Positions 511-19,149 of a DNA stretch of 64,000 nucleotides are shown in pieces (within the stretch, counting starts at the first letter, position 1; every line of letters starts with the position of its first letter). The notes beneath the pieces are model-generated. The model was given only the letters and a program-made list of their open reading frames with translations, was not told the DNA's origin and made no database searches. The position numbers were made by a program, and so were the translations under genes. Source of the stretch: an uncultured Thermoplasmata archaeon (GTDB taxonomy: Archaea; Thermoplasmatota; Thermoplasmata; Lutacidiplasmatales; UBA184); NCBI GenBank assembly GCA_963749195.1, contig CAVVLX010000006.1, forward strand, positions 862,722 to 926,721. Reading direction: 5' to 3'.

Positions 511-562
511 GGTTATTAACAGTTGCATCGGGCCGCATCCGACGGGTCGAGTCGTTTAAAAC
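511..562. promoter_or_regulatory. Divergent promoter region with two TATA-box-like elements
   Basis: AT-rich patch in a GC-rich divergent intergenic region. TTTAAAA (555-561) lies 28 nt upstream of ATG 583. TTAATAA on the minus strand (513-519) lies about 30 nt upstream of TTG 485. The spacing fits archaeal TATA boxes driving leaderless mRNAs. Confidence 0.4.
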
Positions 563-582
563 GCGACCGTGTTCCGGGGATA

Positions 583-1557: not shown

Positions 1558-1575
1558 CGCGGACGGCGTCGCACC

Positions 1576-3394: not shown

Positions 3395-4431
3395 AGGTCG
3401 GTCGGCTCACCGGACCCGGTCAACTGGCGATCGAAGAACGTCCTCCGCCGTCCATTGGTCCGGGGGAGGTTCTCGTGTCGCTAGCCGGCTGCGGTATTTG
3501 CGGTACCGACCTCGAGAAGCTTCGGGGGAACTACGCTTCGGCCGGGGTCTTAGGGCATGAACCGGTGGGCGTCGTTGCCCAGGTAGGCGCCGGGGTGCGG
3601 AGCGTCGTGCCGGGCGACCGGGCCTTCGTCCACCACCACGTCCCGTGCTACGCGTGCGAGATCTGTCGACGCGGCGACTTCACGTTCTGCCCCACCTACT
3701 CCAAGACGAACCTCGATCCGGGCGGCTTCGCGGAGCAGTTTCGGGTTCCCGAAGAGAATGTTCGTCGGGGCGCGATCCTACCCCTTTCCCCCCGGATCGA
3801 TTGGGCCACTGGCACGTTGCTCGAACCGGCGGGCTGCGCGCTCACCGCGCTCCGTCGGGTCGGTTTTCAGCCGGGGTGGTCGGTTTTCGTGGTCGGATTG
3901 GGACCGGTTGGCCTACTGTATGCGCGACTATCGAAGGCCCTCGGGGCGAGTTGGGTCGGCGGTGCCGAGATGGCCCCTCTGCGTCGATCCGCCGCGGAGC
4001 GGGGACGGATCGACCGCACCGTCGATCCGCGGAATCCCCCCGAGGTCATCGAGCTGGTCCGGTCGATCTCGGACGGGCGGGGGGTCGACCTCGCGGTCGT
4101 CGCCACCGGCGCTCCGGAGGCGGTGCGCTTAGGGGCCTCCTTAACGCGTCGGGGCGGCACCTTGAATCTGTTCGGATTGCCCGAGGCGGGGAGCCGGTTG
4201 GACGTCGATCTTCAAGAACTCTACCTCCGGGGCACCCGGGTGATCCCCTCCTATGCCACGACCGAGCCCGATATTGCGGAGGTTCACGCGATGGTGGTCG
4301 CCGGACGTCTCTCCCTCGCCGATCTCGTTTCGCATCGACTTCCGCTGTCGGACCTCCAAGAAGCCTTTCGACTGGCGCAACGACCGACCGAATCGCTCAA
4401 GGTGGTCGTAACCGGTCCGGCGATTGGCTAG
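3391..4431 (+). CDS. Zinc-dependent alcohol/threonine dehydrogenase family (MDR) oxidoreductase
   Basis: GICGTDLEKLRG...GHEPVGVV catalytic-zinc motif. CYACEICRRGDFTFC structural-zinc Cys cluster. GLGPVGLL Rossmann motif. The ATG overlaps the upstream stop (ATGA). Confidence 0.85.
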   Translation: MKVGRLTGPGQLAIEERPPPSIGPGEVLVSLAGCGICGTDLEKLRGNYASAGVLGHEPVGVVAQVGAGVRSVVPGDRAFVHHHVPCYACEICRRGDFTFCPTYSKTNLDPGGFAEQFRVPEENVRRGAILPLSPRIDWATGTLLEPAGCALTALRRVGFQPGWSVFVVGLGPVGLLYARLSKALGASWVGGAEMAPLRRSAAERGRIDRTVDPRNPPEVIELVRSISDGRGVDLAVVATGAPEAVRLGASLTRRGGTLNLFGLPEAGSRLDVDLQELYLRGTRVIPSYATTEPDIAEVHAMVVAGRLSLADLVSHRLPLSDLQEAFRLAQRPTESLKVVVTGPAIG

Positions 4432-5403
4432 GCCTCTCCGGCTTCCCCGGTCACCGCTCCTGAGACTCGGTGGCCTGCACGCACCCGCGCTTTGGGACCG
4501 AGGAGGGACCCGACCACAACGGCTTCGCGCTCGATCGTCGCGCCCGACATGACGATCGAATTCTCGACGTGCGCTCCGGGCTCGACCGTGACGTCATCCT
4601 CCAGCGTCACGTAGGGACCGAAGGAAGCCCCCGAAGCGGTCACGTCGACTCCGTAGGCCACGGGTCCCTGGCCCACCGATCCTTTCGGAAGGACTCCGCG
4701 ACCTCCTCGACCAGCGTCAAACAGGAGACGTTGAGAGCGTAGGAGCCGCTCGGGGGTGCCGGCATCGTCCCAGAATCCCTGGAATCGGAAACCGAAGACC
4801 CGACGCGCCAGCAGGCCGGGCACGGTATCCCTTTCGAAGTTCGTGGGAACTCCCTCGGGCAATCGATCCAACACCTCCCGGGACCAAACCGCGAGGCCGG
4901 CGTTGATCCAATGGGACGGTGCGTCCTGGGGATCTGGTTTCTCGACGAACCCCGTGATCCGGTCCTGATCATCGAGCGCGGCGACGCCGTAGGGTCGAGT
5001 ATCTTCGACTTCGGTCAGCGCCATGGTCCCGATCCCCCCATGCCTTCGGTGCGCCCCGATCAGTGCCGGCACGTCGAGCGATGCGATGACGTCGGAATTC
5101 ATCAGCAGGAACGGGTCACTGATTCCCTTCTCGGCGTTCTTCATCCCGCCCCCCGTTCCGAGGGGCTCTCGTTCGGGAACCGAACGGATCGGGACTCGGA
5201 ACGGGTGCGCTCGAACGTAGGCTTCGATCATTTCGGACTTGTATCCGGTTGCGAGGACGATCTCTTCGAGGTCCGGCGGAACGAGGTCGAGCACGTGGTA
5301 GAGCATCGATTTGCCGGCGATCGGAATGAGCTGTTTCGGCACGGAGTAGGTGACCGGTCGCAGGCGCGTTCCAAAACCTCCGATCAAGACGATGGCTTTC
5401 ACG
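4428..5403 (-). CDS. Sugar-1-phosphate nucleotidyltransferase (NDP-sugar pyrophosphorylase) with C-terminal left-handed beta-helix
   Basis: ORF 4428-5444. VKAIVLIGGFGTRLRPVTYSVPKQLIPIAGKSML is the classic G-x-G-T-R-L NTP-transferase N-terminus. The C-terminal hexapeptide-like repeats resemble GlmU / GDP-mannose pyrophosphorylase-type enzymes. GTG 5403 (GGAG 8 nt upstream) fits the family N-terminus better than ATG 5444. Confidence 0.8.
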
Positions 5404-5468
5404 TGGCATGCTCCGAACGCTTTGAGGGTGGGACCGCTTCCCACCCATCGACGGCCTCCCTCATGAAT

Positions 5469-6668
5469 TTACAACACCCGGGTTTCAGCCCCTTGCGCCG
5501 TCGCTCGGGCGTATTCCCGTTGCACGAGCCGCTTCAGCAGTGCGGCAGGGCTCCCCCAGATCGAAACCGGTCCAATTTTTCCCGCCCCTTTTCCGATTCC
5601 GACCGCGACGATCGACCCTTTCTCCTGATACCGGAAGTTTTCTAACGGCTCGCCCTTGGATTGATGGACGATATTGCGGCCGGCGATGCGGGCCTCGGCG
5701 ATCGCCGCCTGAGCGGTACCGGGGACGAACACGCCCGTTTGAGGATCTCGGAGCTCGATCACATCGCCGACGCCATAGACTCCCGAGTGCCCGGGGATCT
5801 CGAGGGATTCGGTTACGGCTAGTCGCCCGCCCCGGCCGTGAGGAACGGGTAGCTCCTTCACGATCGGGGGGGCTTGGAGTCCCGCACACCAGACGATCAA
5901 GTCCGCCACGAGCAGACTTCCGTCCTCCAGGAAGACCTTGCCGGATTCAATCTTCGCCACGTTGACGCCCTCGAATAGCAGCACCCCGGTCCGACGCAAC
6001 AGCTGACGCGCTCGGGCGACTAACTCGGGACGGAAGCCTGTGAGGAACGGGAGCGCTCCACCGAGGAGCACCACTTCGGGGGAACGGGCGGACGGTACGG
6101 TCAATTTCCTCCAATCGGTGGTCGCGATCTCCGCGGCGAGCTCCGTGCCAGTCGATCCGCCCCCGATCACGGCAATCCGGGGCCGTCGTTCGGGAGGGAG
6201 CCGGGGAGAACCGCGTTCGACCTCGCGAACTGCTTTCGCCAATCCGAGGGCATTCGGAAGCCGGTAAATCTGGTGTGTGAACTCCTCGGCGCCCGGCACT
6301 CCGTAGTAGGCGGCCACGCTCCCGAGGCAGATCGCGAGCGAGCGGTACGACAAGGCAGATCCGGACTCGAAGGTTATCCTTTGGGCGACCAAGTCGATCG
6401 CGCGAACCGAATCCGTTCTCCAAGTGACGGAGGTTCGGGCCAACACCTTTTCGATGGGGACGGAGAACGACGAGGTTTCGTCGTCGGTCGCGAGACGACC
6501 GACCTCATACAGTTCGGTCCGCAACACGTGGGAAGGGTGACGATCGACCATGACGATCGGCAACCGACCTCTCGATCGCCGGGCCACCTCGTGCGCCACC
6601 ATTACGCCGGCATAGCCGGCGCCCAGGATCACGACCGGATCCGTGGAACCCGGCGAGGGAGTGGACAT
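5469..6668 (-). CDS. FAD-dependent pyridine nucleotide-disulfide oxidoreductase, type II NADH dehydrogenase (NDH-2)-like
   Basis: Two dinucleotide-binding motifs (VVILGAGYAGV; IAVIGGGSTGTELAAE) and GVYGVGDV near the C-terminus. 399 aa. Confidence 0.8.
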   Translation of the reverse strand: MSTPSPGSTDPVVILGAGYAGVMVAHEVARRSRGRLPIVMVDRHPSHVLRTELYEVGRLATDDETSSFSVPIEKVLARTSVTWRTDSVRAIDLVAQRITFESGSALSYRSLAICLGSVAAYYGVPGAEEFTHQIYRLPNALGLAKAVREVERGSPRLPPERRPRIAVIGGGSTGTELAAEIATTDWRKLTVPSARSPEVVLLGGALPFLTGFRPELVARARQLLRRTGVLLFEGVNVAKIESGKVFLEDGSLLVADLIVWCAGLQAPPIVKELPVPHGRGGRLAVTESLEIPGHSGVYGVGDVIELRDPQTGVFVPGTAQAAIAEARIAGRNIVHQSKGEPLENFRYQEKGSIVAVGIGKGAGKIGPVSIWGSPAALLKRLVQREYARATAQGAETRVL

Positions 6669-6834: not shown

Positions 6835-7839
6835 TCAGGGCGAATTTGGGATCTTGTGGGGCAGGGTCGGCGGAGCGGGGCTGGCCGTGGATTGGCGTTG
6901 AGGCCCGGCGCGATAGCGCCGGGGGAGTTGAACGAGATACACCCCGAGAGCGACTCCGACCGCGCTGAGGGAGAGGGCGAGCAATACGAGAATCCCAAAG
7001 GAGTAGCTGATCCAAGTCAGCAGGACGATCGCGAGTGCGGCGACGATCAGGGGAGTGGCTCCGGGAAACGCTCGCGCGGGCGGCCGATGGACTTGCGGGC
7101 CCCTCTGAAGATTTGACAGGAGCTCCGGGTGACGGGCCAGCAGGGCCTGGTTCGAAGCGGAAAGAGACGCCCGATCGTTCGACTCCGTCAGAGGGAGTTG
7201 CGCGCCCGAGACGGTGATGGGCCGGAGCAACGGGGACAAGGTTCCGAAAAGGGCGAGCGCGGCGAGCGGAACGACGGCGGGTTGCGGAAACTGGGACAGC
7301 GGAAGGTCGCTCGGAACATAGGAACCCTGGGCGAGTTCGATCACTCCGCGGAACTGGGTGACGAGCAGGGTCCGAAGATTCGTGGCGACCGTCGAGGCGT
7401 TGATCGAGCTGAGCGAGGAGAACGTACCCACGAGGACGAGCAGCAGTACGAGGTCTACGAGGAGCAGTTGGAACGAAAAGATCTGCCAGCCGATCCCTTC
7501 CTCTTCTACGAACATCCACGCGGCCGCGACCAACGGAGAGATGAGGATCGTCCCGACGGAAAGCTCCAGGAGCCCCGAAAGAGTCCCGGAGGATACGGAG
7601 ATCGCCCCGCTTTGAGCCAGCAGGTAGAAGGCCCCGGGGAGACCGCCGAGGATCACGGAGGGAGCAATCCGATCGAATCGGTAACGGCGCGACAGTGGAA
7701 GCACAGCGGCCGCCAAGATGATCCCCGCGCCGACCACCGTCCAACCCCCGATCGCGGCGATCCACGGGGCCACGACGACGAAGCAGTAGCCCACTAACGG
7801 GAGCAAACAGGCCGCTTTCAGGAGGCGTCGCTCGATCAT
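6835..7839 (-). CDS. Polytopic membrane protein of unknown function (about 8 predicted TM helices), last gene of the MoxR/DUF58 cluster
   Basis: ORF 6835-7851. Hydrophobic segments include LLKAACLLPLVGYCFVVVAPWIAAI, WQIFSFQLLLVDLVLLLVLVGTF and GILVLLALSLSAVGVALGVYLV. ATG 7839 overlaps the DUF58 stop (ATGA), suggesting translational coupling. No catalytic motif recognised. Confidence 0.7.
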   Translation of the reverse strand: MIERRLLKAACLLPLVGYCFVVVAPWIAAIGGWTVVGAGIILAAAVLPLSRRYRFDRIAPSVILGGLPGAFYLLAQSGAISVSSGTLSGLLELSVGTILISPLVAAAWMFVEEEGIGWQIFSFQLLLVDLVLLLVLVGTFSSLSSINASTVATNLRTLLVTQFRGVIELAQGSYVPSDLPLSQFPQPAVVPLAALALFGTLSPLLRPITVSGAQLPLTESNDRASLSASNQALLARHPELLSNLQRGPQVHRPPARAFPGATPLIVAALAIVLLTWISYSFGILVLLALSLSAVGVALGVYLVQLPRRYRAGPQRQSTASPAPPTLPHKIPNSP

Positions 7840-9146
7840 CCCGCCCCCCACGTGCGGATGCGCGAGTACACCGTCAGAACGCGGGAAACGGCCCCTCGCC
7901 GATCGTAGGGGACGGTCGGGACTCCCTCGGTGCGCAAGTACGCCATCGCTGCTTGGATTCGTTGCGTTTCCGCCTCTTCGGGCAATCGCAACAACGATTG
8001 GGCCACCGGACCGACCGGGACGGGGTAGAACGACGGAAGTTGGGGAACGAAGGCGTGGAGGCGATGCCCTCGAGCGAAGAGGCCGGCCGCGCGGGAATGG
8101 AAGGTCGAGAAGTTCGTGGAGAGCGCGCTGAAGAGCAAGAGATGGGCGCGCGCGCTCAAGTCGTGCCCCAGCCGTTCGATCGCGCCGGAGAGGTTGAACG
8201 ATTGCATGGTCGGTCCAATCGAACAGAGCGCATTGGTGAGCAGCGAGCGATGCGTGGCTCCGTGATCGGGAGGAAGGTAGACGACGGGTCGTTGATCGTA
8301 GGCGAGGACCCCGATCCGGTCATCCTGCCGCCCCACGAAGGCGACGAGGACGAGGGCCGCTTCCACGGCTCGATCGAGCGCCGTTTGACCCACCATCCCC
8401 GCATTCATCGCCCGTCCGACGTCGAATAGGAGAACGAAATCTTGTCGACTCTCTTGTTCGTACTCGCGAATGAAGAGCTTCCCTTGGCCGGATCGCTTCC
8501 AGGCGATGGAGCGAATATCGTCGAAGGGAAGATACGGTCGGATCGACCGGAACTCGGTCCCATATCCTCGGTGGCGCAGCGTGCTCGCGCCCATCCACCG
8601 GGTGCGGAGCCTTTGACCCACCTGCCCTCCGGTACTTCCCGGCAGCGGCGAGACGACGGTGAATTCTTGCCTCGTGTCGAGCGCCAGCGTCTCGAAGGCT
8701 AGGCCGGCGGGGTCGTGAGCCACGACGATCGTCGGTCCCAACGTAAAGGAACCCCGTAACGAGGGGCGGATCAGGTAGTTCAAATCGAGCGATTCGGAAG
8801 GAGGCCACCAGGAGAGCACGCGCGGCGAGCCGAGCAGAACCTCACAACTTTCGGGCGTCGAGTCGAAGACCTCGGCCCAAAACCCCTTTCCGGTCGGGTT
8901 CGACACGTGGACGGACGTACCCGCCGTGCCGTTAAGCGCGATGCGCGGCGGCGGCCCCTCCCGCGCGCGTTCGAAGTAGAACCGCCGCAGGCGGCGCGTC
9001 GTCCATGAAAAAATCCCAATCTCCGCCGCCGCAAAGACGACGAAGGCCCATCCGGCCAAGAGGACGAGCAGATTGACCGTAAGAAATCCGAGGAGCAGCG
9101 ACCCAAACCCGGCCGCGAGCAATCCCCAGCCTCGCTGACTGATCAT
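7836..9146 (-). CDS. DUF58 family protein (vWA-like fold, two N-terminal TM helices)
   Basis: Hallmark DUF58 core FDDIRSIAWKRSGQGKLFIREYEQESRQDFVLLFDVGRAMNAG. N-terminal TM hairpin WGLLAAGFGSLLLGFLTVNLLVLLAGWAFVVFAAA. Sits directly downstream of MoxR, as is typical. Confidence 0.88.
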   Translation of the reverse strand: MISQRGWGLLAAGFGSLLLGFLTVNLLVLLAGWAFVVFAAAEIGIFSWTTRRLRRFYFERAREGPPPRIALNGTAGTSVHVSNPTGKGFWAEVFDSTPESCEVLLGSPRVLSWWPPSESLDLNYLIRPSLRGSFTLGPTIVVAHDPAGLAFETLALDTRQEFTVVSPLPGSTGGQVGQRLRTRWMGASTLRHRGYGTEFRSIRPYLPFDDIRSIAWKRSGQGKLFIREYEQESRQDFVLLFDVGRAMNAGMVGQTALDRAVEAALVLVAFVGRQDDRIGVLAYDQRPVVYLPPDHGATHRSLLTNALCSIGPTMQSFNLSGAIERLGHDLSARAHLLLFSALSTNFSTFHSRAAGLFARGHRLHAFVPQLPSFYPVPVGPVAQSLLRLPEEAETQRIQAAMAYLRTEGVPTVPYDRRGAVSRVLTVYSRIRTWGAG

Positions 9147-9204
9147 CTCGCAACTCCCGTTGACGACCTCGAGCCCGTCCGTGCTGCGCAGCCGGAGATG
9201 GGGG

Positions 9205-10290
9205 CTAGCGTGGGGGCGGGACCCGGGCCACGAGGGCCGAAATCACCTCGCCGAGGAGTTCTTCGCTCTGGACCTGAGTGGACGTAATCTGTTGGGCCAT
9301 CACCTCGGGGTGAATGACCACCCGATGATTCAGGACCGCAAACGCGAGGGATTTGACATCGTCCGGAATGACATACCCTCGCCCATCGAACAAGACGCTC
9401 GCTTTGACTGAACGGAGGAACTGGACTCCCGAGCGCGGGGAGGCGCCGATCAGTAGACGCGGTTCCTTCCGCGTTTCCCGTACGACATTCGTGAGGTACT
9501 GAAGCACCTCATCAGCGACAAAGATGGCTTTGGAGCGTTCGGCGAAGGATTGGAGGAGCTCGATGGAGACCAACCCTCGCGTGGGATAGATATCTCCCGC
9601 GTCCGAACGCGATCGGAGAATGCGGAATTCCTCATCGACCGTGGGATAGGTCAACAGGATGCGGAAGAGAAATCGATCGAGCTCCGCTTCGGGAAGTGGA
9701 TACGTACCCTCCTGCTCAACCGGATTCTGCGTCGCAATGACCATGAACGGGTCGGGTAGCGGGTACGCCTTGCCTTCCATGGTCACCTGGCGCTCTTGCA
9801 TCGCCTCGAGCAAGGCCGACTGCACTTTGGGCGGGGCCCGGTTGATCTCATCGGCGAGCACAATGTTCGCGAAGATCGGTCCGGGTCGGAACTCGAACGT
9901 CTGGCTCTTCGGATTGATGATGATCGACCCCATGATATCCGACGGGAGCATATCGGGAGTGAACTGGATCCGTTTGAACGATAGATTGAGGCAGGTCGCG
10001 AACGACCGCACGAGGTACGTTTTGGCGAGTCCGGGAACCCCTTCGACGAGGACGTGTCCGTCCGAGCAGAGCGCCACGGTCAGGAGGCGCACGATCGACT
10101 CCGATCCGATGACCGCCTGCCCGATCGACTCCTGCAGGCGGCGCAGCACTCGGCGCGGGTCCGAATCCGATCCTCCTACTTCGTCTCCGGGCCCGACTCC
10201 GCTTCCCGGGCCGGCAGCCCCCACCACTCCCTCGGTCGTTCCATGGGGTCGCGCGGGAAGCGCGCTCGAAGTGTTGGGTTGAGCGCCCAT
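9205..10290 (-). CDS. MoxR-family AAA+ ATPase
   Basis: Walker A VLVEGVPGLAKT. RIQFTPDMLPSDIMG. Walker B / sensor region GPIFANIVLADEINRAPPKVQSALLEAMQERQVT. VIATQNPVEQEGTYPLPEAELDRF. The ATG lies 1 nt after the upstream stop. Confidence 0.95.
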   Translation of the reverse strand: MGAQPNTSSALPARPHGTTEGVVGAAGPGSGVGPGDEVGGSDSDPRRVLRRLQESIGQAVIGSESIVRLLTVALCSDGHVLVEGVPGLAKTYLVRSFATCLNLSFKRIQFTPDMLPSDIMGSIIINPKSQTFEFRPGPIFANIVLADEINRAPPKVQSALLEAMQERQVTMEGKAYPLPDPFMVIATQNPVEQEGTYPLPEAELDRFLFRILLTYPTVDEEFRILRSRSDAGDIYPTRGLVSIELLQSFAERSKAIFVADEVLQYLTNVVRETRKEPRLLIGASPRSGVQFLRSVKASVLFDGRGYVIPDDVKSLAFAVLNHRVVIHPEVMAQQITSTQVQSEELLGEVISALVARVPPPR

Positions 10291-10291
10291 T

Positions 10292-10855
10292 TCAGAGGCC
10301 CCCCGAGGCGGCGAGAGCGGTGGAGTGGTCCCGACCCAGTTCGGCCAGCAGGGCTTCGGTCTCTTCCACGAGCTTTGGGACCCGACGTCGGAGGCGACCG
10401 CTCAACCGCCGGATCTCGCGTTTCGGGATCGGAATCGAGGTCCGTAACGCTTCGAGTCGAAGCGCGGTTCGATACGTTTGGTCGATCTCGTCGTTGAGAT
10501 GCTTGATCGTCCCGGCTTCGTCAATCTCCTCGTCGCCAAACAGGCGAGCGGTGAACGTGTGCACTTGACTGGCATGGCGTCCCGTCCGGCTGAACACCGC
10601 TGAATCCAGTCGGTAGCTCAGATAGGCGAGTCCCATGGACGACCTCTCTTGGTTGAGAGCCGAGTAGACACGCGAGTAGGCATCACCGTCCGGATCGGGA
10701 CGGCTTCGCACCGGCCGCATCACCGGAGGCTGGTGACGGGGATACCAGAAAATCCATCCGATAACGACCCCGATCAGAATGATCGCTGAAACGAAGTAGG
10801 CGCCGGGCGCCGAGAGAAGATTCCCGACGTCCGAGAGGAGAGAAGCGTACGGCAC
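10292..10855 (-). CDS. Hypothetical single-pass membrane protein with helical C-terminal domain
   Basis: ORF 10292-10972. The long form overlaps the upstream gene by 112 nt. GTG 10855 lies 6 nt after the upstream stop and follows GAGGAGG. TM segment YFVSAIILIGVVIGWIFWY. No known motif. Confidence 0.6.
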   Translation of the reverse strand: MPYASLLSDVGNLLSAPGAYFVSAIILIGVVIGWIFWYPRHQPPVMRPVRSRPDPDGDAYSRVYSALNQERSSMGLAYLSYRLDSAVFSRTGRHASQVHTFTARLFGDEEIDEAGTIKHLNDEIDQTYRTALRLEALRTSIPIPKREIRRLSGRLRRRVPKLVEETEALLAELGRDHSTALAASGGL

Positions 10856-10860
10856 GAGGG

Positions 10861-11367
10861 CTAGTCCGCCTCCTCTTCCGCTTCCCAGCCGGAGCCATCT
10901 CCGGCAGTTCCCGGCGATTGACCCTCGGCCGAGGGATCCTGAGGCGCGAGATGGCCCAGGTAGAGTCCCCACATCGGTCGATACGCGTAGATCGATTGGA
11001 GGATCGCGACGGGATCCCCTCGGAGCGGCGTCCCGGGCGGACCGAAGCGGACGGGCTCATACACGGCGTAGAACCGTCGCACGACGTCGCGAAGCTCCCC
11101 GGGGACATACGATCCGGTGACCGACAGCGTCATCGTGCCCACTGCCCCCCAACGAGTGACGATCTCCCGGTCGGTCCAACCCGCCGGGATCGAGAGGCCG
11201 AAGGCGCGTTCCATATCTCGGACGACCGCCCGAAACGCGAGACTCAGGGCCGTCGGAGTGTCTCCTGTCGCCAACTGATTCTTCAACATGGTGATCGTGG
11301 GAATCTCGACGGAGCGAATCGTCTGCACCACCACAGGCTCCGCCTTCTTCCGTTGAAACAACGTCAT
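10861..11367 (-). CDS. DUF4129-like protein (soluble, acidic C-terminal tail)
   Basis: GWTDREIVTRW...ELRDVVRRFYAVYEPVRFGP resembles the DUF4129 pattern (T-x-x-E ... Y-E-x-x-R-F/Y-G) usually found at the C-terminus of MoxR/DUF58-associated transglutaminase-like proteins. The assignment needs an HMM check. Confidence 0.55.
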   Translation of the reverse strand: MTLFQRKKAEPVVVQTIRSVEIPTITMLKNQLATGDTPTALSLAFRAVVRDMERAFGLSIPAGWTDREIVTRWGAVGTMTLSVTGSYVPGELRDVVRRFYAVYEPVRFGPPGTPLRGDPVAILQSIYAYRPMWGLYLGHLAPQDPSAEGQSPGTAGDGSGWEAEEEAD

Positions 11368-11449
11368 CGGCCAGCAATCCCTCCGTCTGGTTGAGAAGCA
11401 CCTGCGGAGCTATAACTCCATTTTTACGCTCCGGCAGCAACTCCCGCGG

Positions 11450-14400
11450 CTACGGAGAGGGCGGTCGACCCTTCGAGTTCACCGATTGGGGAGCAAGGGC
11501 CGAGGCACGATCCGGATCTCGCATCCAGACGAGGTAGGCGAGCGCCGCCAGTAGAATCACGACCGGAACTGCGAGGAAGAACCCGACGGCTGTCGCGCTG
11601 TGAGGAAGCAGGATGAGGTTCCACGCTGATTGGCTGCCCCCCGGAGTCGATCCCCCGCCCCCGGGGCTCTGGCCGCGCTCCGGGGTCAGGTACACCTCGA
11701 CCGCCACGTGCGTCACTCCGAAGGGCACGATGAGTGCCGAAGTATTGGTGAGGTAGCCGGTCGCGGACCCGTACAATTCGAAGCGGGCCGGATAGACGTT
11801 CAACGTCAAATTCGCCCAACCGGAGTCGTTCGAGAATGCTTCGGCTATCTCCACGCCCTGGAACTCGAGCACGGCCAAACCTCCGTCAATCGAAAGGTGA
11901 GTGCGGTCGTCGACGAGTTGGACGTCCACGGGGGTCAGATTTGCATTGCGAAGCGTTAGGTTGACCGACTCCGGTGAATAGTCTCCTAGTGTGAAATTGG
12001 TAGAATTCTGTAGATAGCCGTAGGCGACCGCGGTGACGAGGTACAGATACGATCCAACGGGGAGAACAAACACCGCCGATCCATCGCTGGAAGTGTCTTC
12101 GGAATAGGAACCGGTGGGGCCCGAGACATTCACCATTGCGGTAGCGATCGGGAAGCTCCCGAGACTCGAGACATTGACGAACAGCACGATCTGAGTGGGA
12201 GGAGGCAGGATTTGCAGCGTCAGATTGGCGTACGCGAGGACTCCCTGCGTAAGATTGACCATGACGGAATCGGATTGATACCCCGTCTTCGAGGCGGTGA
12301 CAATGCCCGTTCCATCTCCGACGGGAATGGTCGAAAACAGCGTCATCCCGGTTGCGTTGGTCAATTGCCCCGCGGTAACATTCACGTAGGCGATGGCGAC
12401 GTCGACGGTCGCGTTGTCGATATTGTCGTTTGGCCCTCCCATCACGTGGGCGAGCACCTTCGTGGTCGGGCCCGACCCGTTGGACCCCTCGGAGATGTTG
12501 ACCCACGCCTCCCCGGTCAGACCCGGTGGAAGAGAAACCATCACGGAGGAGCTCCCGTAAATTCCGGCCGTGGCACTCACGTTGAGGAGTCCCGCTGGCT
12601 CGTGGGAAAGCGCGACCACTCCGAGATAATTCGTGACCCCCGCCGCCCCTGGCACCGAGACCGCGACGCCATCGCCGAAAGAAACGAAGGAGGGCGGCGC
12701 CACCGCCTCCACGACCACATTCAGCGTGCTCGTGTGGGAAAGCCACCATCCGGAAGTCGGATCGGACGCGAGGTTCCCGCTCCCCCCGATCGCAAACATG
12801 GTGTCGTTCATCGGCTCATCCGAAATGGCGGCCGGATCGTCAAATCCATAACCGGGCCCACTCGCGCTCTGCTGAATCCATTCGCCACCGCTGGGGCTAG
12901 AAAGGTTGAGTTCCCACGTATCCGGATAGACGGTACCGGACGCGCCAGAGGTTGGATCCAGACCTCCGTGGAGCAGGAATCGGTTCGAACCCAGGTCGTA
13001 CAGGAAGTCGGGGGCTTCTCGGGGAGACGGTTGCGATCCTGCCACGCTCACGGCGGACCAGGACGCCGCTCCGGGCCGATAGGTGTACAGCGACGAGCTC
13101 GGTCGGCCTCCATCGATCGGTCCGCCTCCGAAGAGTACGAAGGACCCCACAGCGAGGTCCCAGGCGAGCGCCGCCCCGCCCACCGCTTCGGGGAGCGTAA
13201 CGGGCAATCGCGTCCAATTGTAGGTCGTGAGATTGATCTCCCAGACATCCTGGAACGTGATCGGGCCCGACCCCTGGTAGTCCGGATTCCAACCCCCTGC
13301 GAGGAGCCCGACATCGAGCGTCGGGTCAATAGCAAACGCCGCGTCCTCGCGGGCCGGGGGAGCGACCGCGTGGGTAACGTTGATCCAGGCAGCCCCCTCG
13401 TTCCCCGAGGCGGCTTGAGTGAAATTGAGGGTCCAAGTAGAGGAATCGAGCGTCGGAGTGGACGCGTTGATCAACCCGCCGAACAGGACTCCGGTATCGG
13501 TCGTCGTATCCGTCGCGAACGAGAAATTGTCGCGTGGACTGGGTGCGGGATAGGGTACGCCTAATCCATCGGCCCAACATTTCCACGTCCCGGCATTTCG
13601 AGCCAGAACGCAGCTCGAGTTTTCGAGCGTCGAACCGAATTCTCCACCGAAGAGGACTCCCGTCGAACCATTCGCGTCGAAGGCGAACCCCGCCCCAAAC
13701 GTCGCGACGTCGGATCCGTTGGTGACGGATGGATGGGGAACGAGTGGGCTGGAGCTCCAGCCATAGTCTACCGCCGACAGCGGCAGTTCGTCCGGATTCT
13801 CTGTCGCCGGGAAGAAATAGTAGGCGAGTCCCGTCGTCGACGAGTAAACTTGGACCGCGAAGCCGCCCTCGCAGAACGCCGCCGAGGCCGTGGGCTGGTG
13901 CGTCGCGAAATCGAACGGGACGGAGTACGAAAGAGCCGTGACCTTTCCCGAACCCACGTCGAAAGACGCCAGCCAAAAGCGCTTCGAATCAGAAAGACCC
14001 AGCACGGGACCGCTGGGACCCGCGACCACGAACGATGCCGTCGCGGGCAAGGGGAAAGCCACGAGGGTCGACGGAGATTGCAGCGAGATCTCGAAGAGGG
14101 TTTTTTGGGAGCCGCTCAACAGGAAATAATCGCCATTCGATGCCACCGCCCCGTTGGGGAAGCGGGTCGGAGAGGTCGAGAGCGAGACGTTGGTAAGCGA
14201 CGGAACAGGGACGATAGGAATCGCGGAACAGGCTCCGGATAGTGGACCCACCAGGTCGACCGACGAGGAGCCGGCCACGAGAAAGATTCCTTCGGTCCCC
14301 CCCAGGATAGTTGGGGGGATCGTGGCGCCAAAAAGGTCGGCCAAGCTGCAGACTTGGGGAACGACCGTGCCCGTGAGCAAGGTCACGTTGTTTCCGATAC

Positions 14401-15007
14401 CGCTGCCATTCTCTTCCGCGATCGCAATGGTTCCTGCCGAAACGGCCCCGGACGTCAGGCTCACACCCGAGCCAAAGGGCTGCCACGCCGCCGGTAGGGC
14501 GGGGGCATAGTCCAGGAAACCGCCGGTCGATGGGGTGTACTCCTCAAGAATTGGCGTCCCCCCCCCGGGGAGGTAGCTGCTCCCAAAGATCAAGGCGCTC
14601 GAGCCTGCGGATACGGTGCCGTCCAGGTCCCCATCCCAGTTGTATGGGAGCATACGTTGCAGCCCGTCGCTCGCATTCAATGTTTGAAAAATCTGGCTCC
14701 CCGTGTAAACGGCGTACTCCTGCACTCCGCTCGTGCTCCCGAGGCCGCTCGGCGGACTGGCCCGGGTGAACCCGGTAGTGATATTGATCGGGATCAGGGA
14801 AGTACTCGGGGGAGGCGGGGGCAGTCCCGGGGAGGATCCCGCCCCCGTGAAGCCCGATGGCGAGAGATGGATCAGAGAGGCGATCGGACCGGAAGTTCCC
14901 CCGGGAATCATGAGCTGGAGCGCAACGATCAACACCAATATCGAAACAGCCGCTCCGCTACGAAGCGCTGCATTAGGTCCGACGGCTGGACCTCGCCGCG
15001 ATAGCAT
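11450..15007 (-). CDS. Large surface (S-layer-like) glycoprotein: signal/anchor, six Kelch-like propeller blades, three CarboxypepD_reg-like beta-sandwich domains, Gly/Ser/Thr stalk, C-terminal TM anchor
   Basis: 1185-aa ORF. N-terminal hydrophobic segment AAVSILVLIVALQLMIPGG. Repeats GVLFGGEFG / GVLFGGLIN / VGLLAGGWNP / FVLFGGGPIDGG / RFLLHGGLDP / MFAIGGSGN. About 33 N-x-S/T sequons by my count. GGGGSTPGGSQS linker, then AVGFFLAVPVVILLAALAYLVWMRD. Confidence 0.85.
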   Translation of the reverse strand: MLSRRGPAVGPNAALRSGAAVSILVLIVALQLMIPGGTSGPIASLIHLSPSGFTGAGSSPGLPPPPPSTSLIPINITTGFTRASPPSGLGSTSGVQEYAVYTGSQIFQTLNASDGLQRMLPYNWDGDLDGTVSAGSSALIFGSSYLPGGGTPILEEYTPSTGGFLDYAPALPAAWQPFGSGVSLTSGAVSAGTIAIAEENGSGIGNNVTLLTGTVVPQVCSLADLFGATIPPTILGGTEGIFLVAGSSSVDLVGPLSGACSAIPIVPVPSLTNVSLSTSPTRFPNGAVASNGDYFLLSGSQKTLFEISLQSPSTLVAFPLPATASFVVAGPSGPVLGLSDSKRFWLASFDVGSGKVTALSYSVPFDFATHQPTASAAFCEGGFAVQVYSSTTGLAYYFFPATENPDELPLSAVDYGWSSSPLVPHPSVTNGSDVATFGAGFAFDANGSTGVLFGGEFGSTLENSSCVLARNAGTWKCWADGLGVPYPAPSPRDNFSFATDTTTDTGVLFGGLINASTPTLDSSTWTLNFTQAASGNEGAAWINVTHAVAPPAREDAAFAIDPTLDVGLLAGGWNPDYQGSGPITFQDVWEINLTTYNWTRLPVTLPEAVGGAALAWDLAVGSFVLFGGGPIDGGRPSSSLYTYRPGAASWSAVSVAGSQPSPREAPDFLYDLGSNRFLLHGGLDPTSGASGTVYPDTWELNLSSPSGGEWIQQSASGPGYGFDDPAAISDEPMNDTMFAIGGSGNLASDPTSGWWLSHTSTLNVVVEAVAPPSFVSFGDGVAVSVPGAAGVTNYLGVVALSHEPAGLLNVSATAGIYGSSSVMVSLPPGLTGEAWVNISEGSNGSGPTTKVLAHVMGGPNDNIDNATVDVAIAYVNVTAGQLTNATGMTLFSTIPVGDGTGIVTASKTGYQSDSVMVNLTQGVLAYANLTLQILPPPTQIVLFVNVSSLGSFPIATAMVNVSGPTGSYSEDTSSDGSAVFVLPVGSYLYLVTAVAYGYLQNSTNFTLGDYSPESVNLTLRNANLTPVDVQLVDDRTHLSIDGGLAVLEFQGVEIAEAFSNDSGWANLTLNVYPARFELYGSATGYLTNTSALIVPFGVTHVAVEVYLTPERGQSPGGGGSTPGGSQSAWNLILLPHSATAVGFFLAVPVVILLAALAYLVWMRDPDRASALAPQSVNSKGRPPSP

Positions 15008-15174
15008 TGCTCTCCGCTCGGTACCCGGAAGTACGCTTGGGTCGTCTCATTACCCTTCCGGCGCCTCGAAATCCCACTCCCACTGCATATACCCTAGGCG
15101 AGGGAGGGGAGGACCGTGGGCCTCTTTGATTTCAAGTTCAATCCGAACCGAGCGCCGCTCGCCCCCGTCGACGT

Positions 15175-16191
15175 TTACCCCTTGGCGGGCTTCGAAAGGC
15201 GGAGCGCCATCGTGAGCGTCGTGAGCCTCCGCTGGAATCCAATCTCCTCGAGGGCGGCGACCGCGGATCGCGCGGGATCGGGGACCGCCGCCACCACGGA
15301 CGTGCTGCCCTCTGACCGCATCCAGGCAACTCCTTCGGTGACTAAGTCGAGCAGACGTTCTCGCGGGGCTAGTGGATCCACGGCGGGGAGAAACAAGATC
15401 CCCGGAGACGGCGGCGGTCTCCAATAGCCCCTCAGATACGCATGGGTCCCTCCCGGAGGACCAACGGCCCACGCTCGCCGTTTCACCCCCCGCATTTGGG
15501 CGATCACCTCGAGATGGGTCAGTGTACCCGGAGTGGGTGGAACGATCGAGGAAAACGGAGTCGGAATTCGAGCACGGCACCATTCGGCCGCCGCCTTCGC
15601 TTCGGAACGACCGACCAGTCGACTCTCGCTGGGACGCACGGAATGACTCGCGATTTGGGCGAGGTCGTCCCCCCGCAGCCATTCCGTCGTCTGAATCGAT
15701 TCATACCCACGGTGCTGATACAGCTCGATCGCCGGACGGTTCTCCCCTTCCACGTCTAACACGGCCCATGCCTTCCCTCGCGCGCGGGCGACCTCCTCCG
15801 CCCGATCCATCAGCTGCGAGCCGACCTTGCGCCGACGGTGCGTCGTTCGGACCCCGACGCCCGCGACATATCCGTAGGATTTTCGAAAACCGAGTATGGT
15901 CGTCCCCACGCGCTCCGCTCCGTCGGTAGCTACGAAGAAGTCGGCGAGAGGCCGCCCCATGGTTCGCATGAGTCGGAGCAAGAACCAGGTCCCGGGTCGA
16001 AAGAGGAACTCCATCGAGTTAGGCCCGGTATCATCCATCGCGAGCAGGTGTTCAAACGGGCCGGTGCTCTGGGAAAGGATCTCGACGAAGGCGGGCCCAT
16101 CCGACCGCCGCAGCTCCCGAATGCCGATCGTCCCCGGAGCCCGAGCCTCGGTGGCAGAATTGTGGGACTTCTCCGGCGCTATTGAATTCAT
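15175..16191 (-). CDS. GNAT-family N-acetyltransferase (two tandem GNAT-like halves)
   Basis: Acetyl-CoA binding motif VGVRTTHRRRKVGSQLMDRAEEVARARG followed by NRPAIELYQHRGY. A second, degenerate GNAT-like half ends in AVAALEEIGFQ. Confidence 0.8.
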   Translation of the reverse strand: MNSIAPEKSHNSATEARAPGTIGIRELRRSDGPAFVEILSQSTGPFEHLLAMDDTGPNSMEFLFRPGTWFLLRLMRTMGRPLADFFVATDGAERVGTTILGFRKSYGYVAGVGVRTTHRRRKVGSQLMDRAEEVARARGKAWAVLDVEGENRPAIELYQHRGYESIQTTEWLRGDDLAQIASHSVRPSESRLVGRSEAKAAAEWCRARIPTPFSSIVPPTPGTLTHLEVIAQMRGVKRRAWAVGPPGGTHAYLRGYWRPPPSPGILFLPAVDPLAPRERLLDLVTEGVAWMRSEGSTSVVAAVPDPARSAVAALEEIGFQRRLTTLTMALRLSKPAKG

Positions 16192-16359
16192 CGTGGTTCG
16201 ACAGAAGACTCACGGAGAATTCACTTTGGGTCGAATCCGAGCCTTCGTCAAATGCGGGCGGATGGCATCGGCCCGATTGGTGGGGGGACGTCCAGTGCAC
16301 ACTAGAGCGCCCAACGTGTCGAGATGATTCGCTGAAACGTCGCCGAAAGAGCCGGCCGC

Positions 16360-19149
16360 TTAGGTCGATCGTCGTGACGATCGTCCATATAACAAGGCAA
16401 ACGGAAGAGTTTCGAACAACGAGGGCACGGAGAGGTAACGTGATGCCTGCCCGCTCGCGATGAGAGCCGACCGCGAGACCAAGCCGTCCTGCCAAACCGT
16501 GGGCGCCTCATCGGGGAGAACGATCCTCGAGCCCTTCCAGATGGCCCCGCTCGGCGGCGCGAGCTCCGAAACGTTTCGACTGCCCAAACCTCTCCCGATC
16601 GCTACAAGTACCCATTCTGATCCCGCGACGCGGGCGAACGACAAGACCCCGAAGTTTTGGCCACGTTGCTTCCGCAAAGGGGTGTACGCCCCTTCGGTCA
16701 GGAGCTGAAGATGTTCCTTTCGGAAGTGAAGGGAACGCTGAGTGACGTACAGTTTGAGATTCCCGGTCCACCAATAGCGAACGAGACCCCGAATTTTGGA
16801 CCCAGACCATGGACCCGCGGCCGAGGAGACTCGCTCCAACGATCGTTCAAGCCCGGGGAAGTCCACGAGACGCCGGTTGTCGGGGTCGACGAAATGCAAC
16901 GCCGATCGTTCAGATCCCTGATACACGTCGGGGATTCCGGGTACGGTTGCCTTCAGCACGGTGGTTGCGAGCGAGTTCCAGAAACCTAAGTAGGCAATCG
17001 TTCGGCACCACTGATCGAGTTCGTGTCGCAATTCGCTCGGGCTCTGCGTCGTGAGCAGCCAGGTGGCAAGACGGGACACGGCGGCCTCGTACGCGAGGTT
17101 TGGGTGGCGCCAATTCGTCCGTACCTTCGCTTCACGGACGGCCTTGATCGCGTAGGCTCGAAAGCGGTCGGCGAACGTTGCCGCATCCCGCGCGTCGACC
17201 GGACGAACACTCAGGAGTGCCTGGAGCAGTAGGTAGGTATCGGCACGACTCACTCGAGGTTCGTCGGGGCCGGAGCGGGTTCGCTCCTCGATCCAACGGA
17301 ACCAAGTCGGAATGCGCTGGTTCCACTCCTTCGCTCGCTCCGTGAGGGCGGCTAACCGGGCCCGTGCGTCTTCTCCCCATTTCGAATCGTGAGTCGTGGT
17401 CGCGGTGAGCGATCGCGGAGCCGCGGACTGCCGAGCGATCATGAACTCGTGGAACTCAGCGACGGAAGTCCCGTAGTGAGCCGGGTCCGCTCCCACCTCG
17501 TTCAGCGCAAGATAGGGCACGTATCGGTAGAGGGCCGTGTCCTCGATGCCCTTGGCGGCGACCGCAGGAGCCCACTGCTGCCACGGCCCCTGAATACGAA
17601 GTCGCGCTCCGCGCTCGATGGATAACTCCCTTGGGGGTTCGTCGCTTTCGATCCCTCGTCGAATCCGTCGGAGTAGGTGCTTCCGAACGTTCGAATCGTA
17701 ACGGAATCCACGGCGCTCCGCACGCCGAAGGGCGAGAACATCCGGCGTACGAACGCGGCCGGGGCGGAGATATGTCCGATAAACGGTCAACCCCGCCGTG
17801 AATGTATTGAGGGCGGACCCGACCTGACGGACTTCGACCTGTCCGCGGCGAGGGCGGCCGGGGAGTTCACTAAATCGTCGTGCGAGTCGGCGCGTTTCCG
17901 ATCGAAAGAGTTCCCGCTCAATTTTCCGCTTGGCCCGGAAGCCCACTTCGTCGAAGGTCTGCCGGCTCTGGGTCACCCAACGATAGGTCCCAGCCAGCGA
18001 CTTCGCTCCTCGAGGGTCGAGGAAGACCCCAGTGAGTCGGCTCATCGCATCATAGCCCGTCGTCCCGTTGACGGGCCACTCGGCGGGAAGCGTCTCTGAT
18101 GGTGCGAGGATTTTCTCGACCCAGATGGCCTCGGAAACGTGGCCTCGAGGGCCTCCTGCTCGCAGTGCCCGTCGCAACCGTCGGAGGTACGCCGTGGGGT
18201 CGACGATTCCGTCGATGTGATCGATCCGCAGCCCGTCCAAGTAACCCTGATGCACCCAGCTCAAGATTCGTGCATGGCTCTGGCGAAAGACCCTAGGATC
18301 CTCGACTCGAATTCCAATGAGATGGTTCACGTCGAAGAATCGCCGGTAGTTGACCCGTCCGTCGTCCCAATACGGAACGAGGCGATACACCTGGTCGTTC
18401 AGGAGGTCTCGCGCAAACTTGGAGAGGCGTCCACTCGGCCCCGTCCGCCGGAATTCGTCGAGCACCTCCTGAACGACCTTTCGCCGCTCGGGCGGGGCGG
18501 ACATTCCCGTAAGAATCGATCGACGGAAATCTTGCCCCCGCCTTGGTGGGCTGAAGCTCGACGATTTACTCTCGGAGCCGCCCTGGCATCGAAGGCGTAC
18601 TCGTTCGACAAATCGATGCGTACCTCGAGCTCCCACGGGGTAGCGCAACCCCTCGACGTCGAAGTAGAGAGCGTGGGAACCAAGATGTAGGGCGACTCGC
18701 CCGGTTCGGACCGATTGATCGAGCGGGCGCGAGAGTACCGGAAGGACAACGCGCGACGAGTCTCCGGGGTCCGGAGTCCAATCCACGTCGAACGCTCGCG
18801 CGAATTCCGACCGAGGCCCCCGTTGGAGGACATCTCGCCACCAAGGATTCTCGGGTGTCGCGGCGAGGTGGTTGGGGACGATGTCGAGGATCAGGCGCAT
18901 TCCGCGCCGATGGGCCGCGTGCGCGAGCGCACGGACGCCTTGCTCGCCCCCTCGGGCCGGATCGGCCTGGGTTGGGTCGATGACGTCGTACCCATGAGGG
19001 CTCCCGGGCCGGGCGGCGAGGAGGGGGGATAGGTAGAGGGTATCGATCCCCAGCTTCTCCAAGTACGGAAGCGCTCGAACGGCCGACCGCAGATCGAACT
19101 CGGAACGAATCTGCAATCGGTACGTCGCGACGCTCGGTCGCACCGCCAT
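16360..19149 (-). CDS. treY: Malto-oligosyltrehalose synthase (TreY)
   Basis: N-terminus ATYRLQIRSEFDLRSAVRALPYLEKLGIDTLYLSPLLAARPGSPHGYDVIDP and LILDIVPNHL, GLRIDHIDG, TTTHDSKWGED. 929 aa. Confidence 0.92.
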   Translation of the reverse strand: MAVRPSVATYRLQIRSEFDLRSAVRALPYLEKLGIDTLYLSPLLAARPGSPHGYDVIDPTQADPARGGEQGVRALAHAAHRRGMRLILDIVPNHLAATPENPWWRDVLQRGPRSEFARAFDVDWTPDPGDSSRVVLPVLSRPLDQSVRTGRVALHLGSHALYFDVEGLRYPVGARGTHRFVERVRLRCQGGSESKSSSFSPPRRGQDFRRSILTGMSAPPERRKVVQEVLDEFRRTGPSGRLSKFARDLLNDQVYRLVPYWDDGRVNYRRFFDVNHLIGIRVEDPRVFRQSHARILSWVHQGYLDGLRIDHIDGIVDPTAYLRRLRRALRAGGPRGHVSEAIWVEKILAPSETLPAEWPVNGTTGYDAMSRLTGVFLDPRGAKSLAGTYRWVTQSRQTFDEVGFRAKRKIERELFRSETRRLARRFSELPGRPRRGQVEVRQVGSALNTFTAGLTVYRTYLRPGRVRTPDVLALRRAERRGFRYDSNVRKHLLRRIRRGIESDEPPRELSIERGARLRIQGPWQQWAPAVAAKGIEDTALYRYVPYLALNEVGADPAHYGTSVAEFHEFMIARQSAAPRSLTATTTHDSKWGEDARARLAALTERAKEWNQRIPTWFRWIEERTRSGPDEPRVSRADTYLLLQALLSVRPVDARDAATFADRFRAYAIKAVREAKVRTNWRHPNLAYEAAVSRLATWLLTTQSPSELRHELDQWCRTIAYLGFWNSLATTVLKATVPGIPDVYQGSERSALHFVDPDNRRLVDFPGLERSLERVSSAAGPWSGSKIRGLVRYWWTGNLKLYVTQRSLHFRKEHLQLLTEGAYTPLRKQRGQNFGVLSFARVAGSEWVLVAIGRGLGSRNVSELAPPSGAIWKGSRIVLPDEAPTVWQDGLVSRSALIASGQASRYLSVPSLFETLPFALLYGRSSRRST

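Follow-up and report, generated by a model that had tools for sequence, protein, structure and literature searches.

The 64-kb window analysed here (the whole stretch of 64,000 nucleotides of contig CAVVLX010000006.1) comes from an uncultured Thermoplasmata archaeon and has a G+C content of ~63%. Between positions 6835 and 15007 it holds six minus-strand open reading frames (ORFs) in one orientation, which we refer to, from upstream to downstream, as K, A, B, MoxR, DUF58, and M. All six were found, and their translations checked, where the original prediction, made from the letters of the DNA and a list of ORFs, had placed them, and the junctions agreed with it as well: the A stop is followed after 6 nt by the B start, the B stop is followed after 1 nt by the MoxR start, and the DUF58 stop and the M start overlap as ATGA. 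Further, DUF58 starts 58 nt downstream of MoxR. The start codons that had been picked for B (GTG at 10855) and M (ATG at 7839) give products identical to entries in a public protein collection. Pfam names four of the six proteins (K, A, MoxR, and DUF58), and neither Pfam nor NCBIfam matched a family to B or M.

The most upstream gene, K (11450-15007, minus strand), encodes a type I surface glycoprotein of 1185 amino acids, which scored above the cut-offs of three Pfam Kelch families (PF24681, 63.1 bits against 50; PF13415, 42.6 against 22; and PF13418, 23 against 21.6). It had been described as a giant Kelch-propeller protein; the Kelch repeats are confirmed, with GG/W repeat columns that are invariant among 15 K orthologues, but the propeller occupies only residues ~417-760 of the 1185. 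It is preceded by a hydrophobic N-terminal signal or anchor segment (residues 18-36) and an N-terminal region (~40-416), and it is followed by three Ig-like repeats of the CarboxypepD_reg type, which end in GYQS, GYLQN, and GYLTN at residues 909, 997, and 1084, respectively. The C terminus consists of a juxtamembrane WNLILLP motif at residue 1129, a transmembrane (TM) helix (1141-1159), and a basic cytoplasmic tail of 23 amino acids. N-x-S/T sequons number 33 in K, compared with 9.5 expected from its composition. Between lineages, the propeller core is well conserved, and K varies in how many Ig-like repeats it has and in its N-terminal region, the first ~400 residues being restricted to one subclade. 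The juxtamembrane motif, TM helix, and basic tail are kept in nearly all K orthologues, whose C termini carry no DUF4129 domain; these ends run from [FW]-x-[LY]-L-(L)-P, often with a C-x3-6-C pair ahead of it, through the TM helix to a basic tail 7-40 residues long. We note that the Cys pair stands before a juxtamembrane PF-x-LLP within the C-terminal ~75 residues of most K orthologues; the subclade formed by the window and two relatives (L001 and L010; the loci of relatives carry L numbers) is without it and has W-N-L-I-L-L-P-H in its stead (window residues 1100-1185). A sequence search of the PDB with K returned one Kelch repeat of KLHDC10 as the sole match, and Glyoxal_oxid_N and DUF1929 (galactose/glyoxal oxidase-type) were not among the Pfam matches of K at E<=1. 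We regard K as a candidate major envelope protein of uncultured, presumably wall-less, soil Thermoplasmata (i.e. Lutacidiplasmatales and relatives).

The five genes downstream of K recur as a module, and K recurs beside it. The relatives of DUF58 were surveyed in one genome per GTDB species, which gave 67 Thermoplasmata loci, including Candidatus Lutacidiplasmatales and Candidatus Lutacidiplasma silvani, and hidden Markov models (HMMs) for K, A, B, MoxR, DUF58, and M were run against the six-frame ORFs of all loci. In six annotated neighbourhoods of relatives, the five-gene module was present throughout (proteins of ~160 and ~175 amino acids, MoxR, DUF58, and a protein of ~300 amino acids) and was adjoined, in varying position, by a Kelch/CarboxypepD_reg protein of 806-1191 amino acids. 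Across the loci with enough flank to decide, a K-family gene abuts the module in 52 of 54; in 29 of these it precedes the module on the same strand, in 3 it is upstream and divergent, and in 20 it is downstream and convergent. Among the 29 same-strand loci, 9 have a K stop codon that overlaps the start of A, and in the convergent loci the stops of K and the module are only tens of bases apart. The arrangements track the clades of DUF58, and because they fall on different clades at least 3 rearrangements have taken place, with the adjacency kept each time. Genomes with two modules (L012/L073 and L016/L044) have one K per module. The reverse survey, in which an alignment of the propeller only was run against JGI metagenome contigs and K-family membership was set at HMM E<1e-100, found the module at 22 of 22 decidable loci, while four others were truncated by a contig end. 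No module accompanied the more distantly related Kelch proteins (27-30% identity) of the metagenome loci. In the 64-kb window itself, the K HMM matches this gene alone. No other neighbour is conserved, the flanks differing between loci. The linkage of the glycoprotein gene with MoxR-DUF58, on whose conservation in related genomes the original prediction had staked its reading, thus holds from both sides. We conclude that the linkage between K and the module is conserved, tight, and specific, and we consider a functional linkage between the two to be very probable.

Several loci of relatives depart from the common layout. At L025, which has no K, the module has rve-type insertion sequence transposases on both sides (3042-3878 and 11276-12181), which suggests that K was displaced by transposition. 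At L043, likewise without K, the convergent slot is taken by an ORF of 1376 amino acids (10334-14464, minus strand), whose sole match is a weak one to DUF2341, presumably a LamG-like domain; this ORF may be a non-Kelch surface protein that replaces K. At L090 (1719-4747) and L111 (2969-6257), the stretch directly upstream of K encodes, on the strand of K, another MoxR (E~1e-107 against the MoxR HMM of the module) and a distant relative of DUF58 (E~1e-10), and the regular module is convergent on the far side, so that K stands between two MoxR/DUF58 pairs. A second, more distant Kelch protein occurs beside the first K or across the module at L004 (12216-15374, with PKD repeats), L013-L015 (~14800-17300), L034, and L035.

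The gap between K and A is 82 nt long and holds ATGGAGTTATAGC (11409-11421) and GTGCTTCTC (11393-11401). When the gap was aligned between the window and L001, L010, and L011, whose proteins are just 60-78% identical, both elements proved invariant across the four genomes, and the neighbouring bases diverged. An SD-like (Shine-Dalgarno) GAGGGA at 11378-11383 lies ahead of the A start, and the exact gap motif occurs once in the window. From its sequence and spacing, the conserved block (11378-11433, minus strand) is probably an archaeal promoter of the TATA/BRE (B recognition element) type with a short leader and a ribosome-binding site for the five-gene module. This bears out the caveat that the glycoprotein gene may be a transcription unit of its own: the AT-rich patch on which the caveat had rested falls within the invariant block, and K lies on the opposite strand in 23 of the 52 loci. 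Together, the conserved block and these 23 loci suggest that the module has its own promoter, and co-transcription with K would be optional and not what underlies the linkage. The same two observations favour the view that K and the module are co-regulated neighbours only, which belong to one envelope regulon while the module serves another membrane or envelope target (e.g. quality control or a respiratory or transport complex), and the minimal cytoplasmic tail of K fits this view too. We nevertheless find it distinctly improbable: the adjacency has outlasted at least 3 rearrangements, the pairing is 1:1 in both directions, with one K per module in two-module genomes, and no alternative neighbour is conserved.

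MoxR (9205-10290, minus strand) encodes an MRP-type AAA+ ATPase of 361 amino acids. Its identity as an AAA+ ATPase stood up to the Pfam search (AAA_3, PF07726, E=4e-66 over the full model, 1-131/131; AAA_lid_2, PF17863, E=1.2e-15, at residues 271-343) and to inspection of its motifs, which are intact (Walker A GVPGLAKT at residue 84, Walker B LADEINR at 145, sensor-1 ATQNP at 186, and ELDRF at 203). The start that had been chosen, ATG at 10290, is by contrast ambiguous against GTG at 10224: the product from ATG 10290, alone among the six, has no exact entry in the public protein collection, and in a Logan assembly of identical sequence MoxR is called from the GTG ~66 nt downstream (10224). The first ~45 residues of MoxR, which are of low complexity, may be untranslated. 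We note that MoxR seems broken at L006/L059 (~8950-9983 of one contig, MFD03399.bin.2.1), where just a 149-amino acid AAA_lid_2 fragment was called and the MoxR HMM matches two separate ORFs; the rest of that module is intact, and the break is a frameshift, a pseudogene, or an assembly error.

The gene adjoining MoxR, DUF58 (7836-9146, minus strand), encodes a partner with a VWA fold. The protein has 436 amino acids (PF01882, E=1.1e-21) and consists of a TM hairpin (residues 4-54) followed by a run of arginines, an Ig/MG-like beta-sandwich (59-165), a disordered linker (170-200), and a VWA domain (~200-431); the linker runs into the DUF58 signature RGYGTEFRS...DDIRSIAWKRS (193-219), which is invariant or nearly so in 28 sequences. 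The original prediction had seen no VWA partner. This is right insofar as Pfam and NCBIfam scans found neither separate VWA proteins of the BatA/BatB type nor a TPR protein in the cluster, but DUF58 itself passes VWA_2 (29 bits against a cut-off of 27), and its AlphaFold2 (AF2) model (pLDDT 83.8) contains a VWA domain, with structural matches to Rpn10, BatB (3ibs), 4jdu, TFIIH p44, and Ku80. The beta-sandwich matches TRAP-beta and the MG domains of complement C3 in structure, and a sequence search of the PDB with DUF58 gave no match. The metal ion-dependent adhesion site (MIDAS) is degenerate, reading DVGRAM at residues 242-247 in the window, and the Ser positions of DxSxS vary across the clade (DVTPAM, DVSPAM, DLDPSM, and others), so that the residues of a functional MIDAS are not in place. 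DUF58 has about 50 full-length relatives at 32-78% identity, and every organism-labelled one is a Thermoplasmata archaeon; the next match beyond Thermoplasmata is from Arthrobacter (E=1e-17).

An ATPase of the MoxR type, a VWA domain, and a beta-propeller also come together in the ternary MoxR-vWA conflict systems described by Kaur et al. in 2020, in which the propeller is fused to the vWA protein and the P-loop reads GXXXTAKS (PMC7159879). The MoxR of the window does reach 46 bits against PF20030 (bpMoxR), and the linked gene K encodes a beta-propeller protein. AAA_3 scores far higher, however (221 bits), the P-loop reads GVPGLAKT, and the propeller is predicted to be extracellular and is part of K, the DUF58 protein having none. 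Further, PADLOC defence models gave 0 matches to all six proteins, and we saw no effector domains or hypervariable component. We rejected a conflict or defence system on these defining features, and the membership tests largely refute it; it is the least likely of the readings and in our view hardly credible.

A (10861-11367, minus strand) is a soluble protein of 168 amino acids without a TM helix and passes the Pfam model of DUF4129 (PF13559, E=3.8e-7, 30.5 bits against a cut-off of 24.8), in agreement with the free-standing soluble DUF4129-like ORF that had been proposed. Residues Y103-x-P105-x-R107-x-G109 and Y127 are conserved. The predicted model of A is a confident all-alpha bundle (pLDDT 85.7), for which the PDB held no significant neighbour, the best being HEPN at E=0.78. 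The family is small: among 1.84 billion representatives, an exhaustive phmmer search recovered 63 clusters (50% identity), and the relatives are essentially all stand-alone proteins of ~150-200 amino acids. Kelch-DUF4129 fusions were sought in the same search, and the four long matches were spurious (a YadA adhesin, a TPR/NACHT protein, a STAND NTPase protein, and a SpaA-type prealbumin-fold repeat protein). At L076, a second A-like ORF (14859-15269; DUF4129-like, HMM E~3e-19) lies ~2 kb past a convergent K and outside the module.

B (10292-10855, minus strand) has 187 amino acids from its GTG start, with the one TM helix that had been claimed for it, at the N terminus (residues ~21-39), and a helical domain that is predicted to be cytoplasmic. 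Its place in the cluster is the slot that DUF4350 takes in a bacterial cluster described below, and by eye it resembles the DUF4350 proteins of Arthrobacter and L077 in their TM helix and helical tail. We nevertheless dropped the idea that B is a truncated DUF4350: hhalign was not significant, and an HMM of 56 B sequences misses the DUF4350 proteins of L008, L077, and L078. No Pfam family, including PF14258 (DUF4350), matched B in the 56 orthologues. When the B HMM was searched over all locus ORFs, a weak likeness between B and A surfaced instead. Aligned by hhalign in two independent profile-profile comparisons, B and A gave P=2e-4 (46% probability) and P=8.9e-5 (59.6%) in the same register, with the cytoplasmic domain of B on the DUF4129 core, and the helical domain of B is possibly a divergent DUF4129-like domain.

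The last gene, M (6835-7839, minus strand), encodes a polytopic protein of 334 amino acids with ~7-8 hydrophobic segments, close to the ~8 TM helices predicted for it. A homologue search with the single M sequence found only 4 close relatives. M is a clade-specific family, in which Q162 and P180 are the only invariant residues across 53 orthologues and no Pfam family is consistently matched; for these reasons an enzymatic role, such as that of an archaeosortase, is unlikely for M. We considered a DUF3488-like, a DUF7847-like, and an archaeosortase-like identity for M and rejected all three, as the 53 orthologues matched no Pfam family consistently and had no invariant residues of a catalytic type; hhalign between M and the polytopic protein of L008 was not significant either. 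These residues also bear on the idea that the end of K is a sorting signal and that M is an archaeosortase-type enzyme that cleaves and re-anchors K with the aid of the ATPase. The tripartite C terminus of K (i.e. [FW]-x-[LY]-L-(L)-P, TM helix, and basic cluster) is conserved as such a signal would be, and M, as a polytopic protein of ~300 amino acids, is archaeosortase-like in size. M has no conserved Cys, Arg, or His, however, and matched no exosortase or archaeosortase family in Pfam or NCBIfam, and the tails of K orthologues, often 20-40 residues long (range 7-40), exceed those of typical sorting signals, the K motif not being a described one. We judge C-terminal sorting very unlikely.

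The absence of a Cys-His-Asp transglutaminase core had been predicted, and it is borne out by profile scans: PF01841 was not found at E<=1 in the six proteins, nor in 53 M or 56 B orthologues. DUF3488 (PF11992) was found neither in M nor in its 53 orthologues, although remote homology below the sensitivity of HMMs is possible. With no transglutaminase, DUF3488, or separate VWA domain in A, B, and M, an ordinary Bat or transglutaminase operon is not indicated. The cluster shares with Bat operons the MoxR and DUF58 core and the resemblance of the DUF58 VWA domain to BatB (3ibs) and 4jdu, but lacks their separate BatA/BatB VWA proteins and TPR protein. The second comparison is with the PA2875-PA2874-tgpA operon of Pseudomonas aeruginosa, in which we take PA2875 and PA2874 to be MoxR and DUF58 and the C terminus of TgpA to carry DUF4129. 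The three genes form one transcription unit, and TgpA has polytopic N-terminal DUF3488 TM helices followed by the transglutaminase domain (PMC3507681). A DUF4129 domain is thus common to both, though archaeal A is a separate soluble protein. Unlike that operon, the archaeal cluster has neither PF01841 nor PF11992 (six proteins and 53 M orthologues), and its ectodomain is a non-enzymatic-looking Kelch/Ig array in a gene of its own.

The closest known layout is the actinobacterial DUF4129-DUF4350-MoxR-DUF58 operon. In Arthrobacter sp. AD-310 (L008), the source of the nearest bacterial DUF58 match, the order is DUF7847 (polytopic), DUF4129 (TM-anchored), DUF4350, MoxR, and DUF58; the succession of a DUF4129 protein, a TM protein, MoxR, and DUF58 is that of A-B-MoxR-DUF58, and both clusters have a free-standing DUF4129, a polytopic protein, and no transglutaminase. 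They differ in that archaeal B is without the DUF4350 ectodomain and any detectable likeness to DUF4350 proteins, that A lacks the TM anchor of the bacterial DUF4129 protein, that no homology is detectable between the polytopic proteins, which occupy opposite ends of the clusters, and that the archaeal cluster adds the giant Kelch glycoprotein as an obligate neighbour. The original prediction had named two classes of MoxR-DUF58 partners (VWA/BatA proteins and a DUF3488-transglutaminase-DUF4129 protein) and so overlooked this third class of free DUF4129, DUF4350, MoxR, DUF58, and a polytopic protein. Its further reading of the cluster as a split variant without the catalytic core has to be amended accordingly: the gene order is nearer to the Arthrobacter class than to a transglutaminase operon minus its core, and the notion of a split survives in another form, namely as K and A.

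This form is suggested by L077 (SG225.bin14, Thermoplasmata). Its surface protein, of at least 2145 amino acids, has TSP3 repeats and CarboxypepD_reg and ends in YWYLP, a TM helix, RWRKRH, and a DUF4129 domain (29.9 bits); DUF4350, DUF58, and polytopic protein genes follow. The likeness to the window extends to the CarboxypepD_reg-type Ig domains, the juxtamembrane motif, TM helix, and basic end, and the presence of DUF4129, DUF58, and a polytopic protein. Differences are the fusion of DUF4129 to the surface protein, the presence of DUF4350, the lack of Kelch repeats, and a DUF58 only 25% identical to that of the window, and no MoxR was found within 17 kb of locus sequence. Because K has the same motif-TM-basic end without DUF4129, and A adjoins it, K and A look like a split "ectodomain-TM-DUF4129" unit. 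We take the fusion as Rosetta-stone evidence that would link K and A functionally, and, since it joins a surface protein covalently to DUF4129, it also speaks against K and the module being co-regulated neighbours and nothing else.

A surface glycoprotein gene adjoins MoxR-DUF58 in one further system, the bifidobacterial PFNA cluster (pkb2-fn3-MoxR-duf58-tgm), where a large FN3 glycoprotein lies beside MoxR, DUF58, and a TM transglutaminase; its authors suggested that MoxR may chaperone the FN3 protein and read FN3, transglutaminase, and MoxR as a module for signal recognition (PMC8430577). PFNA includes a Ser/Thr kinase, a TM transglutaminase, and an FN3 surface protein, whereas the archaeal cluster, without kinase or transglutaminase, has the Kelch protein, a free DUF4129, B, and M; neither the Ser/Thr kinase Pkb2, nor an FN3 protein, nor a TM transglutaminase was detected in the six genes or their flanks.

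We propose, at about even confidence, that A, B, MoxR, DUF58, and M make up an AAA+ remodelling machine that is attached to the membrane and belongs to the DUF4129/MoxR/DUF58 class and that K is its dedicated partner, as either a client or an ectodomain subunit. In favour are the two-way linkage, the L077 fusion, the intact ATPase motifs of MoxR, the VWA fold of DUF58, and the known systems in which an ectodomain protein is encoded next to MoxR-DUF58 (PFNA and the tgpA operon). In characterised MoxR ATPases, a VWA adaptor holds the client (PMC7159879). Here, MoxR would be an ATPase hexamer of the usual kind on the cytoplasmic side of the membrane, and DUF58, tethered by its TM hairpin, would serve as the adaptor through its VWA domain and beta-sandwich, in the manner of VWA partners in other MoxR systems. 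A and the TM-anchored, possibly DUF4129-like B would couple this adaptor to the membrane-proximal end of K (i.e. juxtamembrane motif, TM helix, and basic tail), and M would act as a membrane scaffold. ATP hydrolysis would then alter the assembly, anchoring or oligomerisation, or conformation of K from the inside. MoxR, the body of DUF58, A, and the C terminus of B are predicted, from hydropathy and the positive-inside rule, to be cytoplasmic and held at the membrane, with the bulk of K and loops of M facing outward. As the soluble domains of the module and the propeller are thus predicted to lie on opposite sides of the membrane, the machine is unlikely to fold the propeller or load it with metal directly, and it would reach K only through the TM helix, the juxtamembrane motif (via M), or the short basic tail (via A/B). 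Maturation, metal loading, and anchoring of the envelope protein had all been put forward for the cluster; anchoring or remodelling through the membrane survives, whereas direct maturation and metal loading are topologically unlikely.

Several observations weigh against the proposed machine. First, DxSxS is not conserved in the DUF58 clade, and canonical peptide or metal capture may therefore not apply. Second, the tail of K is short and conserved merely as a basic cluster, which leaves little for a cytoplasmic machine to grip. Third, M is nearly devoid of invariant residues, and the homology between B and A is merely suggestive (46-60% probability). Finally, K is missing from 2 of the 54 loci (L025 and L043), and conserved adjacency also fits co-regulation without contact. 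We hold our confidence in the mechanism where it is because the MIDAS is degenerate, the K tail is minimal, and the physical contacts, like the topology, the direction of action, and the biological outcome, are what we infer from the sequences. The direction could indeed be the reverse, with K as a receptor or lectin whose propeller binds a ligand and whose TM helix signals to A/B, MoxR-DUF58 being the output or the reset. The linkage and topology data fit such outside-in sensing equally, it is the direction proposed for PFNA (PMC8430577), and the variable Ig-like repeat number and N-terminal region of K are as expected of a surface recognition protein. But the six genes hold no kinase, response regulator, DNA-binding, or other output domain, the propeller core is conserved rather than hypervariable, and characterised MoxR proteins are assembly or remodelling chaperones (Kaur et al., PMC7159879), and we regard sensing as unlikely, if plausible.

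To our knowledge, pairs of MoxR proper and DUF58 are among the most widespread AAA+ systems of bacteria and archaea and have no established substrate. For this orphan ATPase family, K provides a concrete client hypothesis, and the archaeal clade provides a clean natural experiment, with one module per specific surface protein, 1:1 in both directions and through several rearrangements. The components, the MoxR-DUF58-DUF4129 theme, and similar actinobacterial layouts are known already; new are the clade-specific archaeal variant, in which DUF4129 is a soluble protein, the DUF4350 slot is taken by a small TM protein, and the polytopic protein is unclassified, and the obligate 1:1 pairing of the module with a Kelch/Ig surface glycoprotein. 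In the library that was searched, we found no paper that links MoxR/DUF58 to Kelch proteins or treats this cluster in Lutacidiplasmatales; the paper describing Lutacidiplasmatales does not mention MoxR, Kelch, or envelope proteins, and a preprint on DUF interactions deals with other DUFs. The comparisons suggest a testable rule, namely that the ectodomain protein which the machine serves is marked at its cytoplasmic end by DUF4129, and this rule can be applied to tractable bacteria (i.e. the P. aeruginosa tgpA operon, Bifidobacterium PFNA, and the actinobacterial DUF4350 operons). A much broader and fairly improbable extension would make DUF4129-MoxR-DUF58 a general prokaryotic "inside-out" engine, in which an AAA+/VWA pair grips a cytoplasmic DUF4129 end, fused or separate, and uses ATP to control surface assembly or conformation; the ectodomains would be exchangeable (transglutaminase, DUF4350, FN3, TSP3/Ig arrays, or Kelch), and the Kelch glycoprotein would be a major envelope or glycocalyx protein of these wall-less Thermoplasmata, with a surface organisation that depends on the machine.

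The flanks of the cluster in the window are unrelated to it, with a GNAT gene upstream (15175-16191) and a Pyr_redox_2 gene downstream (5469-6668), beyond which lie NTP-transferase, ADH, and aminotransferase genes. The downstream block (523-6668; Pyr_redox_2, NTP_transferase, ADH, and class-III and class-I/II aminotransferases) is syntenic with 12522-18577 of the closest relative, L001, and at L005 (1-4235) some of these genes are found across the cluster instead; this placement on opposite sides indicates that the six-gene unit has moved relative to the block. Genes of secreted-protease type stand near the cluster in some relatives (Thermopsin at L001, 1116-3968; Peptidase_M2 at L004, 15585-17330, and L006, 13170-14957) and are absent from the window. 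The sole Rfam family at the gathering threshold in the 64-kb window is tRNA, with a single gene (36305-36377, minus strand). Just upstream of the cluster (16360-23886, minus strand), the window encodes an alpha-amylase-family protein of 929 amino acids, a GH57 and DUF3536 protein of 687, and an alpha-amylase and CBM48 protein of 766, which together look like a cluster for glycogen- or starch-type metabolism.

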